Part shown: piece by piece, positions 561 to 64,000 of the stretch
How positions within the stretch are numbered: the first letter of the stretch is position 1
How the letters are laid out: every line of letters begins with the position of its first letter
NCBI RefSeq assembly: GCF_963921235.1
Contig: NC_086097.1
Coordinates: 129,830,001-129,894,000, forward strand
Reading direction: 5' to 3'
Length of the DNA stretch: 64,000 nucleotides
From: Mobula hypostoma
Taxonomy: Eukaryota
Made by a program: the position numbers and the translations under genes
The notes under the pieces: model-generated
Database searches by the model: none
What the model was told of the DNA's origin: nothing
What the model saw: the letters and a program-made list of their open reading frames with translations, nothing else

Positions 561-2579
561 TTCTCAGGTAAGGACATGTTTGGAACAGCTTTGTGCCTGC
601 CTGGCATCACCTGTGTTCCCCTTGATCCTCCTACTGGCCCTCAAAATCCGTTTTCTCCTGCCCTCACATCTCTCCTCAGCATACATTTTAATCCCCTTCT
701 TACTTCTCTTGGTTCCAAACCCTCACCCTTCTGCTTCCAGTGATAATCTTGGAGTCCAAACTGCAATGTCCCCTGGGCCTCTGATTCTCTTCTAAATTCA
801 GAATAACCCCCCCATCCCCCTACTTTTGAATCTCCTCCCCTTAATTATATTTACCATGGCTCTAAGATCTTAGAGGCACTCATGCCATGTAGTAACACTA
901 CCACTATCTCAAATGGGACGAGTTAATTCAGCGGCCAGAAAAGGGGAGAAGTTGGAGCCCTCTCAGTCTCCAAAGGAGAACAGTGCAGACACCAGTAATC
1001 TGAAGCATATACAGGAAATTTTGCAAATGCTCTCCAGGTCAAATAGCATCTGAGGAGAAAGAAATGTTACCATTTCAGTCTGAAAACATTCTTCGGAATC
1101 TTTCACAGAAGGTCAATGAGCTGAAACATCGACTCTGTTTCTTTCTCTACAGGTGCAGCCTAACCCGCCGAGTCATTACTTTAGCCATCTCGGTGTATGT
1201 GCCTCACAGGGCAGCATATTTAATAACAGTCACTGAACCAACTAAAATAAATCCTGTCCTCTTGTGGCTTAAACTTTGGTGAATCATTTTATGCGTCAGG
1301 GACATTATGTGCAAGATCAGTACTGAGCCCCACAAATAATATGCGTTAATAGACAGATAACTGTCAATCATGGGTTATAAATTAATTTTAGAATTCATGT
1401 CTATAACCCAGTCAAATGATTATTGCACAGTGTGACTTTCTTAATTGCAGTCCCACAATACATTTGTAAGTGTGTGGTTATCTCTATACAAACCTAATGG
1501 ATTGATCTATCTTGGAGTCAAAGGTTCATCTTGCAGGAATTCAATTTGTAGAGCTACATTGTAAAAGCTTCTTTGAAATTCACTGTATTCTCTCCAAAAA
1601 ATGTCCTATATACACACCGATTCTCCTTACAAAAAGTTTGGCTGAGACTTGGGAAAACTGTTCAGTACCTTGACAGAATAAAGTTGATGGCCTAGAAATT
1701 GTCCTAGCTCATCATTCTGGTATTAACACAGGGCTGCAGATAACCTTGACAGTGTGTGTTGAAGTTTCATAAAAAGGGAGAGTTTCAGTTGTTGGGGAGG
1801 TGATGGGGTGTGAGTATTTGAGCAGGACTTGATTCAGAGTTGATGAGGAAGAATGGAAAAGTATAACTGGTTTGGCAAGAAATCAAGGTCAGTGTTTGAG
1901 TTACAGGAATTAAGTGTTGGGTGGGAGGATGAAAAGGGATGAAAGGTCAGTTGGGTGGGGAGGAGATACTGGGTTAAGGTACAAATAAATCATAGCTGTG
2001 TAGGAAGGGTCTACTTGGGACCAAGGTCACCAATGGAAGCTTGATAGATCACAGGGTCTGAATTTCAGAGGTTAAATTGTCAGAGGGTAGGGGGCTGGGA
2101 TCGATATGGGGTGGGGGAGGGGTTGCAGATGTATTGGTGCACTCTGTGGGATGCAGTTGTACTGAAAGACTCTAGATGACTGTGGGACTTGGCTTATGGT
2201 CATAGTCTAATCTACTGAAATGTTATATGCAAGATACAGAATTTGGAACCATTGAAACAGCAAAAAGAAAGCCTGGCTTCTTGAAGGGCCTATCCAATTA
2301 TTCCCATTTCAAAATCATTCCAATATAATCAGCTAAGACATGCTGTTTCCAATTGTTCTCACGTGCATTGAGAAAAGAAGTTATTTTCCAATTTTAAAAA
2401 AGATGAAAGTGCAATGACCTTTTATAAAACATTCATTCACTGGAAATGCATGTCACCAGGAAGGCCAGAGTTTCTTATCTGCTCTTAATTAATCTTGAAC
2501 TGACATGTTGGTCTGTTTTCAGAGGTTTTTAAGTCTGACTGGATTTGGAGATGCACGCAGGCAAGACCAAGTAAGGGCA

Positions 2580-3190
2580 CACAAGAGACTGCAGATGTTG
2601 GAGCAAGGAAAGAGCGAGATAACCAGTGGAGGGGAGAGGTGGAACAAGAGCGAGTGGGCGATGGGTGGATTCAGACGGGGAGGGAAGTGATAGGCAGTTG
2701 AAGGAGAAAGGAGAATAGGCCTGGCATCAGAAACTGGGAGGTAACAGGTGAAAGTGCCAAAATGATGGGATCTGAGGGCAGAAGCATATAGAGCATAGAA
2801 TAAAGGGAGAGAGGTGGGAGAGCAACTCGTATTCTAACTGAGCAGTGTCCAACCTGGTGACACAAAAAAAACATTGAATTTTTCAAACTTTTGGTAACTG
2901 CTGCCCATCTGTCCTTTTCCTTCTTTTTACTTTTCTCTCTCCCCGATCCAATTGGCTCCTATCACATATCTCTTTCTCCTCCCACAACCTCTCCGTGAGC
3001 TCATCACACACACACCTTTTCCACCTCCCTCTTTTTTTCCCACTTTTTCCTTCTACCTTTTTTACTGGCTATCATCCCTCTTTCTCTCAGTCCAAATAAA
3101 GGGTCTTGATGCAACATTCTGAACGTCCATTTCCTTCCATAGATGCTACTTGACCATTGAGTTCCTTCACACACTGTTCTGTGTTGCACC
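2580..3190. mobile_element. Degenerate Penelope-like terminal-repeat fragments in both orientations
   Basis: caagagactgcagatg, a purine-rich tract, and ttccatagatgct..gagttcc, as in the better-preserved Penelope copies in this window. Confidence 0.55.
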
Positions 3191-3599
3191 AGGACATTTG
3201 ATTTCTTCTTTCTTTATGATAGTCCAGTTACTTAACTGCCACTATTACTAATACTATTGTAACAGAGCTACTTAATTAAATTAATTTAACTTCCCTAGGG
3301 GCCATGTGAGATTTGAATACTTCTGCAGATAAATAGCCCATGCTATTAACTTAATCACAATGCATATTCATGACTGTATAGCTGAAACAGGTTAGGATAA
3401 CTTTGCTTTCAATCTATGAGATCAGATGTGTGCTGGAGAAGCGAACTCACAGCAACATGACTATTCCAGAAACTTCTACAATATGCCTAGAAAGATGCAA
3501 TTAGATGTCATATTGCATTAAAACAATGGGGCGAGGAGGGAGAAAACGATTGCTAACTTAAGAGAATGTATATTTTATGAAGGAGGATAGAAGAGTCAT

Positions 3600-4140
3600 G
3601 GAGTCAGACATACAGAGCAGAAGTGGGTATCTGGCCTATCCCATCTAAACTAGTTGCATTTGCCTGTGTTTGGCCCTTTTCCTTATAAACCTTTTCTATC
3701 TATGTACCTTAAGTACCTGCCTCAACCACTTCCTCTGGCAACTCAATCCATATACTGACCACACACTGGCAAAAAATTTGCTCCTTTGGCTCTTAATGAA
3801 TCTCTTTCCTCTCATCTTAAACCTATACTATCTAATTCTTGATTCTCCAACCCTGGGAAAAAGACTGTGTGTATTGAACCTATCTGTGTCCCTCACTGGA
3901 GCATTCTCCAGTGCTCCCATGACGGCAGTCCCAATCTCCTCACCTCTTTCCATGACCCAGTAGCTAGAGTCTGAACAACATCCTCATAAATCTCCACTGC
4001 ACTATTTCCAGCTTGCTGACATCTTTCCTATGGCAGGGGTGGGGTGACCAAAGCTGAACACAATATCCTAAATGCAGTCTCACCATCATCTTGTACAACT
4101 GCAGTATAGGAACATTAAAAACTGGCTTGGTCATCCCCTC
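3600..4140 (-). mobile_element. CR1 3' fragments
   Basis: LYKMMVRLHLGYCVQLWSPH..KLEIVQWRFMRML in ORF 3964-4170. Confidence 0.75.
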
Positions 4141-4196
4141 TAATTTACAGTATGTTATCTGATGCATCACAGGTTGGTATGGTAACTACCCTGCCT

Positions 4197-4756
4197 GGGG
4201 TGTATGGGGTGTCAGGGAGGGGTAGCACCTCTGGTGGGGGAACATGTCGCGTCCTTTTCAAGGTGGTTAGTCCACCTTTGGTCCCCACCTGGCACTCAGC
4301 TCTCACCTGTGACTCCTCGTAGCTGGTTGCATGCGACAGCAGCCACACCCCGGGCAATGGCTTTGACAAGCCGGCTAAACCAGTTGAGGGTAGCCGACGG
4401 GTCTCAAACCCTCGGTGAGATAGGGAGTTGTCTATCCCAGCATGTGAAGACAGACTCCGGCGGATTGAGCGGACGAGACCAATGGAAGGTCCAACGGTCA
4501 AGAAGGCGGTCTCTGCAAGCGTCGTGGAACTTGTAGAGCAGGACAAGACACAGAAGGCGTCCCGGTCATCCACTGCGCCTAGTCCCATCTCCAGCCGTCT
4601 CGACTCTGTCTTGCCACTGGATACAGATGGGAATTGGGAAGAGAGAGTGAGGCTGACGCTGCGCAACTCCCCCTCACTTAAATCCAAATCACGCGCTAGT
4701 CTCGACACCGTCAATGGTGTCGAGGTCCTCATCGACGTCGACGATGGACAAACACA
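4197..4756 (+). mobile_element. Non-autonomous RTE-like short element (5'UTR joined to a 3' end) headed by an HDV-like ribozyme
   Basis: GC/CpG-rich insert flanked by a short duplication (ctgcctg) inside the Rex1 copy; RTE-type 3' end catcgacgtcgacgatggacaaacaca; no credible protein. Confidence 0.7.
4206..4390 (+). ncRNA. HDV-like ribozyme (predicted)
   Basis: P1 ggggtgt/acacccc; P2 4300-4309/4381-4390; P3 gac/gcc; L3 begins tcctcg; gggcaa after P1'; P4 ggctt/aagcc; J4/2 ggCtaa. Confidence 0.75.
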
Positions 4757-5003
4757 CTCTGCCTGAGATTGTAAGGAACTGCAGAGAGTTATGGACACAG
4801 CTCAGCACATCAGGGAAAACCAGTCTCCCCTCCAGGAACTCTGTCTACACTTCTCACTGCCTTGGTAGAGCAGCCAACACTATTAAAGACCTCAACACCT
4901 CTCTGATTGGGTAGAAGATACAAAAGCCTGAGAGCACAATACACCAGGCGCAAGGACAGCTTCTATCTTCTATTCCATTTTTATAAGACTATTGAAATGG
5001 TTA

Positions 5004-5291
5004 AAATAAATAAATAATAATAAAGGCATCCTTCAGTCTTGCGAGACCATGGATCTGCGCCTGGAAAGTCTTCACTCTCCAGGGCGCAGGTCTGGGCAAG
5101 GTTGCCCATGCTGCAAGTCTCCCCTCTCCACAACACCAGTGTTGTCCAAGGGAAGGGCATTAGGACCCATGCAGCTTGGCACCAGTGTCATCGCAGAGCA
5201 ATGACACAACACATTGCCTCGGCTGGGGCTTGAACTCACGACCTTCAGGTCGCTAGTCCAATGCCTTAACCACTTGGCTATGAGCCCACAC
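5004..5291 (-). mobile_element. tRNA-derived SINE
   Basis: Minus-strand head tagccaagtggttaaggc..gagttcaagcc (A and B boxes), (TTA)n-like tail, 11-bp TSD tgaaatggtta at 4993-5003 and 5292-5302. Confidence 0.85.
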
Positions 5292-30300: not shown

Positions 30301-32257
30301 AAACAGAGTTAACCTTACAGGTCCAGGACTTTTGGTCAAATGTTAACTCTTTTGTTTCCCTGCAGATTCTACTTAACCGGCCCAGTAATTCCACCTTGTT
30401 TTTGTTTTTCTTTTAAATTTCTGATCCCTAGAAGCTTGCAGTATTTTTGACATTAATGTGCTTTGTTTGTTAGCTTATGCCATCTAATAGAGTCAGTCTT
30501 CAGTCATAAAGAGTAGCAGAGTGGGAACAGAAAGGGTATACTACTGTTATTTTCCATTTCAGCATGACAGTACTAAGGAACATCAGAACCAACTTTAGAA
30601 ATGGATTGCTAACTCTTCTGTACTAACCCAAGGGGATAAGACTTCCCCTATAAGGGGGAATTTCATTTTGAATTAACAATGTGCACCATACCAACATCAC
30701 AGTGCCACTGAAATTCTAGTCTAGTAATTAATCTTAGTCAAATGACTAACGTTGCCCTCAGTGGGCTGTTCCTGCCCAAAGGAATTCCTACCAACTTACA
30801 GGTATCCAGAAAGTTCCAAGTCTAGTCTAAACTTCAAAAAAAAGAGAAATCTATTATTTTTGGCAGTTCTATGGCACACAGAAGGAATTTTACTGCCTGT
30901 CATAATAAGTACAGGGTAAACTTATTCTTTAAGAAGTTTTACAGTAATACAGAACAGAAAGTCTCAACAATGATGGATAACACTGGAATACACTGCTCGT
31001 CAAATCTGGGAAGAATAACAATTTTATTACCTTGAGACTTTGCAAACTGCTACTCATTGAGACTTACTACTATCCAATGAGATCATTTCCCTGTCTTCTT
31101 ACACATCTTTGGTTATCAATTTCAGTGCTGGTATCAGCAGCTCCTACTGGATCAATTCCAAACACCTTCCACTGCCTGCACCTGGAAATGTTTCCCAAAC
31201 TCACTTCCCAAATGTTCGACAATACCACCTTTTCCAGCTTCCCCAAGGGAAGTAGTTTCCCTCCAATTGACCCTTAACAACTTTAGAATTTCAAGTGAAT
31301 TATCATTTAAGCTCTTAAATTCCAAGGAATATAGCTTTCATGTAATCCTTCCTCGCAATTTAACCTGAGGAATCTGCAACTGTCCTCCTTTGAAGAACAA
31401 AAATGCAGGGTCCAAAATGAGAGGTCTGCTCACATACAAAACTTGATCTGAATTCTTTCTGAGCCCAAATACATGATTTTTTGTTACCTGAACCCAATAT
31501 GTTCGGACCCAAGCTCTACACAGAAATGCCCCCAATTCTGCCAATGCGGTTTGGCCATATTGCAGGCTTCACCTTTTTGTATCTGGTCCTTTTGATATAA
31601 AGGCCAACACTTCCTTCTTCCTTGTGATTATACATGTATTTATAAAGCCCACTGGCCAAATTCCTTTTGTATAATTGTGTTGGAAACCGCTATGTTTTTG
31701 ATAATACTTTCATAAGATTTGTACTTTTTAACAAACTCATGTATTTTTCACATTCACTAGCAGAAAGTGGTATAGCAGCTAAACTAACGGTTTATCACCT
31801 TTCTCATCTTTCATTGGCACATTATTAGTACATTACCCACGCGATATAATTGTTTTAATTATGTAGCCTATTAACAAATTCATTTCTAAGGAATTTCTCT
31901 TATCTATAAAAGTGTTAGATTTTTCAGAAGTACCATCTTTATTCTTTAGGCTATACACCTCTTAGCATGTTTCTCAGCTCGTTATTTAGTTTGCTTAGTA
32001 TTTGTATGTTCATTTATCCTCCAAAATGAACTGAAATCGTTGAATTAAGACCACTCATCATTCTTGACTCCTGGAAGAACTCCAAGGATCAGAAATTAAA
32101 CAGGGATTCAACAATTGCTTCTTGCTTTTTGCCATTTTGAAAGTACTCAGTTCTATCTTTTTCAGATTCAGATTAGTTTGCTTTACTTTATTGTTACCAG
32201 GGTGCAACAAAATTCCTTGTTCGCATGAAATTAACAGTAAACAGTACATATACTTTC

Positions 32258-32950
32258 TTCAGCCAATGATTGGTGTGTCAGGGCTGACCTGGACAGGAAA
32301 GGCAGTTTCCCGGAGCAAATAGCTTTCTCAACATTGCGTCCAGATATAATCGTATGGTCTGACACCAGTAGGGAAGTGGTTATTGGTGAACTCACAGTCC
32401 CCTGGGAAGACAACATCGATGAAGCCCATGAGCGCAAGTTAACCAAGTATGCAGAATTAAGATCAGAGTGCAGAGACAGAGGGTGGAAGGTCTCATGCTA
32501 TCCATTCGAAGTAGGCTGCCGTGGGTTTATTGCGTTCACTTTCCAGAAGTGGCTGCGGACCTTGGCTTCACTAGAAGAGAGATCAAGTCAACCAGCAGGG
32601 TTGTAGCTGAGGCAGCAGAGAAAGGATCAGCATGCGTGTAGACCAAGTACGTCCAGAGGGGCAGATAGTCAGACAGTGTATACATATCTTGCAAACCCTT
32701 CAGTAGTTGCATAGACACCTGAAGAGCAGACTATCTGTTGGATGGAAGTGACTGATAGAGGCAGATGCCAAGTTTTTAAGCTCACCAGTGGGAGGTGGTG
32801 CTTTAGCACTGCTGGCCCACCACCTCGAGGGAGTCTTGATCATAAGCGGGCCGAAACTCCTGAAGACAGGTGGTGGATCAACTGATGATCCCACTGGTGA
32901 TAGCACAGGACAGTTAACATCTCAGTCCACGTGTATTTTGTAACTCTGAT
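32258..32950 (+). mobile_element. Hero-clade (restriction-like endonuclease) non-LTR retrotransposon, 3' fragment
   Basis: LRPDIIVWS..VIGELTVPWEDNIDEAHERKLTKY..PFEVGCRGF, a PD-(D/E)xK RLE domain, followed by a 3'UTR. Confidence 0.9.
32829..32895 (+). ncRNA. Predicted non-circularly permuted hammerhead ribozyme, copy 1
   Basis: ggagTC-ttgatc / agcggg-cc-GAAA-ctcc / gatcaa-CTGATGA-t-cccact. Confidence 0.7.
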
Positions 32951-32954
32951 AATA

Positions 32955-33350
32955 ATATGTTGAGGCTGATGTCAGAACATCTTTCATAAAAGTGAATCCT
33001 TGCAAGGCATCAGGCCCTGATGGTATACTGGCTTGGTACTGAACAACTGTGCTGATCAGCTAGCTAAAGTATTCAAGACATCTTCAGCCTCTCAATGTTG
33101 AAGTCAGAGGTTCCCACCTCTTTCCAAAGCACAGCAATCATACCAGTGCCCAAGAAGAACAGGGTGAGCTGCCTCAATGACTATTTACTGGTAGCACTCC
33201 CATCTACCATAATAATGTTTTGAGAGGTTAGTTATGGTTAGAATTAAGTCCTGCCTGAGCAAGGACCTAAACCCACTACAAATTTGCCCTCTACCACAAT
33301 AGATCTACAGTGAACACAATCTCACTCTGCTCTGGAGCACCTAAACAACA
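32955..33350 (+). mobile_element. Rex1/Babar RT fragment
   Basis: Remnants of KASGPDG..CADQLA..VPTSFQSTAIIPVPKK..CLNDY. Confidence 0.75.
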
Positions 33351-55117: not shown

Positions 55118-55220
55118 AGGGAGTCTTGATCATAAGTGGGCCGAAACTCCTGAAGACAGGTGGCAGATCAACTGATGATCCCACTGGTGATAGCACATCT
55201 TAGTCCATGTGTATTTTGAA
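55118..55220 (+). mobile_element. Very short Hero 3'UTR fragment containing permuted hammerhead copy 2
   Basis: Near-identical to 32828-32940; stem II agtggg/cccact is fully paired. Confidence 0.85.
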
Positions 55221-62809: not shown

Positions 62810-63050
62810 AATGCAATAGCAGGGAGGGCAGTAATTAGCTGGCACTGTGTTTGATACAAACTCCACTGACCAGCATCCTTCAACAGGTAGGAGCAGATGG
62901 GCAGTGATTTGGCCACCACTGCCGGCCCACCAACTGGAGAGTGTCATGGTTAAGGGTCGAAAACACTCTGTGAAGGTTGGGAGCCACCCGATGACATTTG
63001 CTCCTGGCTGAAGGCTACAGTTACTTTATAAGGTATCTGGAGAATGCACC
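62810..63050 (+). mobile_element. Hero-type 3'UTR-like segment of a second family, containing permuted hammerhead copy 3 (62938-62998)
   Basis: cactgccggcccaccaactggagagtgtc is homologous to cactgctggcccaccacctcgagggagtc in copy 1. Confidence 0.7.
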
Positions 63051-64000
63051 CTAACAGGTGTATGTAACAAGTAATCTCTGTTTTGTACCAGTGGCTTCCA
63101 GGAAAGACTGGATTGCAACCGAGGAAGGTCAGTGACGCTGGAGAGACAGCTGACCTCCAGGAAAGACTGACACGGGCTCACAAGGCTAGCAACCTTGTGG
63201 GCAGCACTCGCAAGAGGGAACCACTCAAGCTACGATTGAACACAAAGAGCAATACCCTCAGAGTCTCCTGAGAGGGAGGGGAGAGGATGAGAGACGCAAC
63301 GGGACGATATACCGGCAATGGCCAGGACAGGAAACACAACTACAAGGAAGCTAAAGCAAACAACACTGACTGGAGAGGAATTCACAGTAAGGTGTCATTG
63401 CAGGAAAGTCTGCAAAAACATCAGAGGGCTCAAAAGATATACCAGAGCAGGTCTAGATGTGGATCAATGGTGACCCAAGTGCAGCACATGGACTTGGTGT
63501 CCGGTGAGACGAAGGAGAATTCCAGCCAGGAAGCATCCCACAGAGCTGAAGATCTCTCCGCACTCGAGTAGCCTCAGCACCGAACAACAGACCAAGTGAG
63601 TTCCCCTTTGGCTACCCCAATCCATTCATCAAGGAAAGGCAGGATCAAATGGCCTAGATCGTCAGACAACGTCACCTGGATGCAACCAAATAGGAGGGAA
63701 AGGGAGGTTCGTCGCTTGAGAGGTGAATTACAGACGCTCAACAAGAGGTTTAAAACCAGCTCACTGACCAAAAGAGAAGGTTTCAAGGACGTAACCAGTA
63801 TGCTGCGGGAAAAGCTGTGCAAACTCTGGAGGGCGGAACATCTACGACAGCAAAGAAGGAAGAAAGAGAAAAGGCGAGCGCAGTTTGTGAGAGATCCATT
63901 CAGTTTCACCAGGACTCTTCTCGGCCAACAAAAATCTGTTATACTATCCAGTTCGAAGCCAGAGGGAGAGGAGTTCCTGTGGGAGGCACACAGTGACCCA
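63050..64000 (+). mobile_element. Hero-clade retrotransposon 5' region (N-terminal zinc finger), running off the window
   Basis: CHCRKVCKNIRGLK/IYQSRSRC; QEASHRAEDL; RIKWP; PNRRERE..LREKL..RAE..FVRDPFSFTRTLLG..HSDP. Confidence 0.85.

Follow-up and report, generated by a model that had tools for sequence, protein, structure and literature searches.

A hammerhead fold of new wiring conserved in the 3′UTR of Hero-like LINEs, whose genomic copies hint strongly at an unusual life cycle

The locus described here raises the question of whether a short stretch in the 3′UTR of a LINE of Mobula hypostoma, carrying the blocks of a hammerhead ribozyme core in the order S-G-C, is a genuine ribozyme, how such a core would be completed, and what it would do for the element that carries it. 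The window, that is, the whole stretch of DNA analyzed (64,000 nucleotides of contig NC_086097.1, positions 129,830,001 to 129,894,000 of the forward strand), contains two families of such elements. From comparison of related sequences, the motif appears to be a real, conserved, and new version of the hammerhead fold, and the way in which genomic copies are arranged strongly suggests that the LINE has an unusual life cycle. To our main reading, in which an active hammerhead of new wiring is used in the life cycle of Hero-like LINEs via a circular RNA, we assign a probability of about 50%.

The element belongs to a large family in the 3.48-Gb host genome (1550 motif candidates and 983 exact matches to a 28-mer of the motif). 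It encodes one ORF with a reverse transcriptase (RT), a CCHC knuckle, and a C-terminal restriction-like endonuclease (RLE), spanning, with frameshifts, about 1890–5290 of the copy L144; the C-terminal nuclease is of the RLE type and not the GIY-YIG endonuclease of Penelope-like elements, and a unit coding for RT and RLE is not the non-coding unit of a retrozyme. Pfam and PDB look-ups of the endonuclease piece returned nothing useful. The flanks of insertions are unrelated between copies, which fits the mostly non-specific insertion described for HERO (PMC4640811), and the insertion site in the window (32950–33300) reads like a decayed fragment of another RT-coding repeat. The original placement of the motif in a Hero LINE 3′UTR thus stands as far as an RLE-type LINE 3′UTR is concerned, whereas the name Hero is a provisional one, based on the domain layout and host range.

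The core lies 160 nt 3′ of the LINE stop codon (32666–32668), with GUC ending at 32835, GAAA at 32853–32856, and CUGAUGA at 32882–32888, flanked by stem I (32836–41/32876–81, 6 bp) and stem III (32829–34/32856–61, 6 bp including one G–U pair). The core letters, their S-G-C order, and both stems lie exactly where the original prediction had placed them, although the full motif, at 32782–32900, extends beyond the 32829–32895 first delimited (Table 1). The statement that non-circular hammerhead orders had been reported is likewise borne out, the S-G-C order being published as type SGC in a study (PMC10085705) that describes it from metatranscriptomes only.

Table 1 Features of the two element families in the window
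Feature	Positions	Strand	Remarks
LINE ORF 3′ end, restriction-like endonuclease region, frameshifted in a 5′-truncated copy	32250..32668	+	RPD..E..VPWE..K..Y motif; 65% identity to P0005
Helix A, 5′ strand, pairing with 32889–32900 (12 bp)	32782..32793	+	12/12 pairs with two-sided change
Hairpin B, 8 bp with 4-nt loop, stacked directly between A and C (predicted)	32794..32813	+	8/8 pairs two-sided
Helix C, 5′ strand, supplying the half of stem II that the hammerhead otherwise lacks; putative G10.1 = G32814	32814..32818	+	87.5% paired, 4/5 pairs two-sided
Helix D, 5′ strand, pairing with 32868–32873; joins far ends of stems I and II	32820..32825	+	82.6% paired, 5/6 pairs two-sided
Non-bulged strand (N-G-A) of the kink-turn-pattern loop between stem III and helix D	32826..32828	+	pattern in 25/39 families
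Block S: stem III 5′ strand 32829–34, N17 = C32835, stem I 5′ strand 32836–41	32829..32841	+	predicted cut after C32835
Block G: helix C 3′ strand ending in C11.1 (32848–52), G12-A13-A14 (32853–55), stem III 3′ strand 32856–61	32848..32861	+	
Kink-turn-pattern bulged strand: 3-nt bulge 32862–64, G-A 32865–66; then helix D 3′ strand 32868–73	32862..32873	+	
Block C lacking the strand for stem II: stem I 3′ strand 32876–81, C3-U4-G5-A6-N7-G8-A9 (32882–88)	32876..32888	+	
Helix A, 3′ strand, immediately after A9	32889..32900	+	
Element 3′ tail without poly(A); element end about 105 nt past the cut site	32901..32947	+	0/90 copies with an A6 run
Second copy of the window family, 5′-truncated just before the cut site; 5′ strands of A, C, and D and hairpin B absent	55118..55218	+	28 bits
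5′ terminal repeat of a second, distant family, with a decayed copy of the fold at the element start	62889..63073	+	fold 62888–63006; 93.5 bits, not in training set
ORF of the second family, N-terminal part	63653..64000	+	

Whether the core is kept in relatives was addressed through the encoded protein. A protein search gave 407 relatives, the named ones mostly from lancelets, sea urchin, molluscs, and fishes, and none was found among viral contigs. From an alignment of 21 relatives, 355 metagenome loci were confirmed, mostly at 31–45% identity, and 80 of these were fetched; the 68 loci with at least 135 nt of flank were kept and the 12 with less were left out. With a parse that considers stems I and III and the core letters only, the S-G-C core is found in 48 of these 68 elements, as compared with 0/68 reverse complements, 0/68 ORF ends, and 1/3400 shuffles, so that the predicted retention of the core across LINE families is confirmed. 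Several of the 20 non-parsing loci are decayed or cut-off copies of the motif, and it is not seen in nine relatives that have flank; in a quick tree, the motif-less loci fall in six places and not in one clade. Dropping 10 near-duplicates and adding the window element gave 39 families, of which 38 entered a sequence-only alignment (L041, which is cut off, was left out); the covariation and pair counts below are taken over these related sequences and do not represent independent events.

A chance resemblance inside a repeat might be suspected, as the 67-nt stretch alone folds no better than its shuffles (z −0.35, by an energy folding to which pseudoknots are invisible) and Rfam, in agreement with the expectation that standard descriptors would miss the motif, gives no match in the window at the gathering score and none in 12 loci at E ≤ 1. 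However, the z score falls to −3.69 once the upstream flank is included, the core recurs in the relatives at a rate far from that of the shuffles, and a model built from the 38 sequences and used to search for held-out families recovers the second family in the window (about 62886–63008) and more families elsewhere in the same genome. The chance explanation is close to negligible, and we conclude from these comparisons that the complete hammerhead core in the 3′UTR of this high-copy, RLE-type (Hero-like) LINE is real. A loose genome-wide pattern, with 26,356 matches versus 17,467 for its control, served only to choose candidate families; 8 of 12 sites so chosen scored above 27 bits with the model and four did not. 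At least two further motif-bearing families were noticed in this genome (L331–L338), helix A of one of them (L334–L336) being split by an internal loop.

The covariation check proposed with the original prediction divides its three stems when carried out over 38 families: stem I (6/6 pairs) and stem III (5/6 pairs) show two-sided change, whereas stem II as then drawn (32845–50/32890–95) remains at shuffle level. Five of its six letter pairs can form in the window family, yet across the alignment 43.1% of cells pair, a value reached by 130 of 500 shuffles and equaled by slid controls; its mean of 2.9 bp compares with 2.8 in cross-family controls; and when the window copy is folded together with its upstream flank, this stem receives a pair probability of 0.00, as against about 1.0 for the helix A described below. 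An ordinary type-SGC hammerhead built on this stem II, with a U/CC loop replacing the G10.1–C11.1 pair, is therefore very improbable, and both the supposed 3-nt linker between the tips of stems I and II and the U/CC replacement itself turn out to be artefacts of the wrong stem. The cctg-aaga-cagg hairpin thought to compete with stem III also has a probability of 0.00 in the window copy with upstream flank. Furthermore, the copy at 55118, taken to be better paired, is 5′-truncated and lacks helices A, B, C, and D, and the strand supplying G10.1 is missing from both constructs suggested for cleavage assays (32820–32905 and 55118–55190), so that a failure of either to cleave would be meaningless.

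The partner of the strand following CUGAUGA and A9 lies upstream instead, some 45 nt before the cut (helix A), and the bases before GAAA pair with another upstream strand (helix C); along the chain, the 5′ strand of helix A leads into hairpin B and this into the helix C strand without gaps. Over the six helices A, B, C, D, I, and III, 78.4% of the cells in the 38-family alignment are paired and 40 of 43 pairs show two-sided change, with a covariation score of 0.514 versus 0.09–0.14 for slid positions. When strict helix lengths are imposed, 25 of 39 native sequences pass, compared with 32/1482 controls with swapped A strands and 225/1482 with swapped C strands, and a perfect junction, all four links having zero bases, is present in 31 of 39 families. 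The nested ensemble of the window copy is dominated by A, B, D, and III. Judging from this pairing, helix A, hairpin B, helix C, and the core form a four-way junction. As to three dimensions, we infer how the junction stacks; the opposite stacking is possible as well and would render the core inactive.

This wiring bears on classification. Directly after A9 on the same strand, where a standard stem II would begin with at most one or two extra bases, helix A is found, and block C, in which the stem I strand, CUGAnGA, and the stem II strand follow in a row, is not intact. The motif thus appears to work like an SGC hammerhead but is not classed as one on account of its broken block C; read as a cycle, it would belong to the SGC/GCS/CSG class, the A9/10.1 step having gained two extra helices and the chain being broken open within the helix A loop.

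The details of the core are those of a hammerhead. Helix C can be equated with stem II because it ends at the base before G12; its first pair is G–C in 31 and G–U in 4 of 39 families, a feature that the parser does not demand. The pair G32814–C32852 is accordingly predicted to play the part of G10.1–C11.1 even though this G is not linked to A9, its position in space being presumed. Natural hammerheads have been described as tolerating a base left unpaired where stem II has its 5′ end (PMC4209133). Over the 39 families, the base directly after A9 is free (C17, U13, G6, A3), N17 is U in 17, C in 13, A in 8, and G in 1, and the 16.2–15.2 pair is G–C in 35, none of which the parser prescribes either. 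In 48 model-aligned rows, the 11 fixed core positions (C3U4G5A6-G8A9, G12A13A14A15.1, U16.1) are each kept in 46–48, although the parser had required most core letters in the 39 training families and, of the 17 rows outside the training set, several are close kin; the freely varying core positions are two, N7 and N17, the latter being G in a single row. For this tally, 15 of 63 rows, cut off or visibly misaligned, were left out. The RNA probably is catalytic as a hammerhead.

A kink-turn consists, in consensus, of a 3-nt bulge followed by tandem G-A/A-G pairs between two helices. Of 39 families, 25 show this pattern where stem III meets helix D and 14 do not; with bulge lengths of 0, 1, 2, 4, and 5 as controls, it is matched in 6, 1, 3, 0, and 8 of 39, and the third bulge base is U in 18 of the 25. 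A bend at this place would let helix D fold back. Eight loci without the pattern (L032, L033, L035, L048, L084, L091, L037, and L042) keep the core and the junction, and some lineages without it have one or two extra bases at the junction.

The second, Hero-like family is represented in the window by an element that begins at 62889 and bears a 185-nt terminal repeat, the two repeats being 95% identical and each containing the ribozyme fold; an intact copy of the fold follows 4855 nt downstream, beyond the window. In this family, 28 of 30 junction sites have an upstream repeat, which passes through the cut site in 19, a fraction biased by the seven tail bases included in the search pattern. Its ORF is interrupted by about 1.26 kb of other sequence (about 1860–3120 of locus L330). 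Another insertion (L373, 2410–7713) comprises about 1.5 units, and its 3′ end overshoots the usual one by some 99 nt of 5′ start sequence, in keeping with internal priming or with a tandem that later suffered a deletion. Distant families share a similar G+C-rich, hairpin-like stretch just before or at the ORF start (window 63254–63298; L150 near 1935; L097, there about 300 nt after the ORF), which could be a translation signal for an uncapped RNA.

What the motif may do for the element is reflected in the arrangement of its genomic copies. Among 82 sites with the 5′ start of the element, 69 have the element's own 3′ end seamlessly before it, with one and the same 3-nt spacer length at the tail-to-head junction in 65 of the 69. 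The start of this upstream repeat varies from +88 to at least −1375 relative to the cut site; 38 of the 69 repeats extend through the cut site, and none starts at 0 to +3. Likewise, 87 of 90 copies chosen by a downstream 28-mer read through the cut site, with an indel there in 0/87. Copying of cut RNA should make 5′ ends accumulate at the cut site, but such ends are seen in 0/90, 0/69, and, for the second family, 0/28. Poly(A) occurs in 0/90 copies; among 68 anchored ends, 51 continue by at least 1 nt into the 5′ start. In a set of 20 long copies, the two longest open with the element's own 3′ end. The 55118 copy and 6 of the 90 are truncated 7–19 nt upstream of the cut, above neighboring bins, where RT perhaps stalls in the fold; in one short copy (L130), the 5′ end is fused to part of the copy's 3′ end in inverted orientation.

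The two repeats of one insertion are also linked by sequence. Of 118 non-CpG diagnostic sites, 97 are identical in both, as compared with a mean of 58% and a maximum of 74% in 5000 permutations, and 48 rare alleles are shared, as compared with 4.3; L250, a duplicate of L246, was left out of this comparison. Some end pairs may nevertheless stem from different templates, since the 82% agreement at diagnostic sites lies below the overall identity of 94.8% between the repeats. Target-site duplications linking both repeats to one event were found in 0/48 cases, and in only 1/25 truncated copies, so seldom that they are uninformative here. Among the metagenome contigs, 14 of 42 long-flank loci have a same-strand ORF start right after the 3′UTR (the 27-residue match of L050 was left out), a count to which assembly collapse may contribute. 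On one contig, two families that are 68% identical (L045 and L055) stand head to tail, either a real mixed tandem or an assembly chimera. Three motif-less relatives (L093; L095/L097) still appear to run tail-to-head, and Naiad Penelope elements make partial tandems in the absence of hammerheads (PMC8557442), so that this ribozyme is not a requirement for terminal repeats. The three relatives may use another, unrecognized ribozyme; Rfam found none there.

The LINE unit behaves as though it were circular, with a length of about 3.84 kb (second family: 3.55 kb) and a preferred starting point for reverse transcription. A circular RNA closed at the cut site would be the simplest origin of such a unit, and the presence of the motif at both ends of full-length copies suggests that they may have been copied from a circular RNA. 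In the predicted mechanism, the sheared G-A pairs of the core would stack on helix C, with G32814–C32852 acting as G10.1–C11.1, while A9 would cross into helix A, itself stacked on B, to give the four-way junction at the A9/10.1 step; the kink-turn would bend stem III back, and helix D would then hold stems I and II in a clamp. Where a genomic copy exceeds one unit, it contains two ribozymes, and a transcript across both would be cut twice to yield a unit-length RNA, whose ends would be held by about 29 bp (A, C, D, and III), so that the ribozyme could re-form and rejoining would be favored; closure of the circle at the cut site may be performed by the ribozyme or by a host ligase. Priming by the LINE protein would then take place at a constant position inside the template, some 105 nt past the cut, and RT would travel around the circle, in many cases beyond a full lap, so that the variable 5′ direct repeat is restored. 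For the RT of R2, strand displacement has been described (PMC4117753), and the same circle model has been put forward for Penelope elements (PMC4209133). Sequencing runs (24, all in the form of contigs, one of them recorded as RNA with a small share) show neither RNA ends nor strand and do not enter the evidence for this mechanism. The wider proposition, that a whole clade of autonomous, protein-coding LINEs moves through hammerhead-made circular RNA with internal priming and more than one lap, the hammerhead being a four-block permutation that receives G10.1 from another strand through a four-way junction and is built to rejoin its own ends, is held more tentatively, at somewhat less than even odds.

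Two alternatives have to be weighed against this circular-RNA reading. Folds in the 3′UTR that bind LINE proteins are usual, and the motif could be a hammerhead-shaped docking site, for the LINE protein or for a kink-turn-binding host protein, that fixes the RT start and is not cut in the cell, in which case linear read-through across tandem copies, or jumps between templates, would account for the partial tandems. The uncut state of the motif in 87 of 90 copies and the tail-to-head joins of motif-less relatives agree with such a role. Docking, however, offers no reason to avoid G at N17 (1/39) or to leave N7 free, nor to deliver a G–C pair from upstream to the place of stem II while the base after A9 drifts. 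Jumps of R2-type RT, moreover, add untemplated bases or use microhomology (PMC4117753), yet 65 of 69 junctions share one spacer length, and a linear template would lose 5′ sequence in each round and need a way to regain the repeat; we regard this explanation as unlikely.

The ribozyme might, on the other hand, cut without a circle being formed: a long, linear, partial-tandem transcript could exist in an equilibrium of cut and rejoined states, or be nicked and held together by the same 29 bp or so, the cut serving regulation, by silencing read-through or by allowing cap-independent translation of the downstream piece. A linear template of more than one unit would yield all of the genomic patterns (read-through, repeats, and shared alleles), and the 82% diagnostic-site agreement fits mixed templates. 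The simplest form of this idea, an R2-like trimming of the linear 5′ end at the cut, was rejected, as 38 of 69 extensions pass the site and none stops there, and crossing of a nick should leave scars, which were found in 0/87 copies. Cutting without a circle is about as unlikely as the docking site, and copying from a hammerhead-made circle remains the reading that we prefer.

If this reading is true, animal genomes contain a hammerhead that none of the six block orders set up by Eckert et al. 2023 (PMC10085705) covers. Those orders, as set out there, assume that CUGAnGA and its neighboring paired strands are never separated; neither Rfam nor descriptors in which stem II is coupled to CUGAnGA can see the motif, and other ribozymes may hide likewise. 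With products joined by about 29 bp, it would be a natural candidate for a self-circularizing module. The passages found in the full-text literature describe no hammerhead in the 3′UTR of HERO or any other RLE LINE, none with a junction at A9/10.1, and no terminal repeats of HERO, though priority is not certain, and the text of the supplement of Eckert et al. 2023 does not mention 'Hero', 'four-way', or 'reverse transcriptase'. LINEs have been described as priming at the RNA 3′ end and are stated, in the relevant passage of PMC8557442, to lack terminal repeats; Hero-like LINEs show Penelope-like partial tandems, and the circle model, proposed for Penelope in 2014, can now be put to the test in a system that combines an R2-related protein with a monomeric ribozyme.

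The motif is worth comparing with the systems that it resembles, as far as the relevant parts of the cited works describe them. With type-SGC hammerheads (HRIMA-1 and variants, PMC10085705), it shares the S-G-C order, mutually pseudoknotted stems I, II, and III, the full core, a short linker from stem I to stem II, and an extra 'I' helix joining the far ends of these two stems (here helix D). In type SGC, however, the stem II strand adjoins CUGAnGA, whereas in the LINE motif it lies upstream of block S, with a four-way junction in its usual place; the kink-turn pattern and the placement of both chain ends in helix A are new relative to type SGC. Type SGC is reported there only from metatranscriptomes, with none in known organisms' genomes save one GCS candidate, whereas the present motif comes from animal LINEs. 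As in the pseudo-LTRs of Penelope-like elements (PMC4209133, PMC8557442), a full-length copy follows a 5′-truncated one, and the repeated end of the Hero-like families, a partial tandem, contains the hammerhead; the proposal of cutting, circularization, and more-than-unit reverse transcription is likewise common to both (PMC4209133). Penelope elements, on the other hand, use a GIY-YIG endonuclease and minimal type I hammerheads (PMC4209133, PMC8557442), in contrast to the zinc knuckle, restriction-like endonuclease, and large monomeric fold of the LINE. Retrozymes (PMC7229834, PMC4918200, bioRxiv 10.64898/2026.07.22.740005) are also hammerhead-delimited units thought to move via circular RNA, but they are non-coding and non-autonomous with type I/III hammerheads (PMC7229834, PMC4918200), whereas the LINE is autonomous, protein-coding, and 3.5–3.8 kb long. 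R2 (PMC6765202, PMC13580325) is, like the present element, an RLE-type LINE with a self-cleaving RNA (predicted here), and its RT is strand-displacing and jumping; its ribozyme, however, belongs to the HDV-like kind and defines where a linear RNA has its 5′ end, whereas the LINE motif is a 3′UTR hammerhead whose copies run through the cut. Finally, the HERO clade (PMC4640811, PMC9004415) shares with our element the single ORF with RT, CCHC knuckle, and RLE, the lancelet, sea urchin, and fish hosts, and the mostly non-specific insertion; to these descriptions, which in the relevant passages mention no ribozyme or terminal repeat, the Hero-like families add a hammerhead of new wiring in the repeated end of the element.
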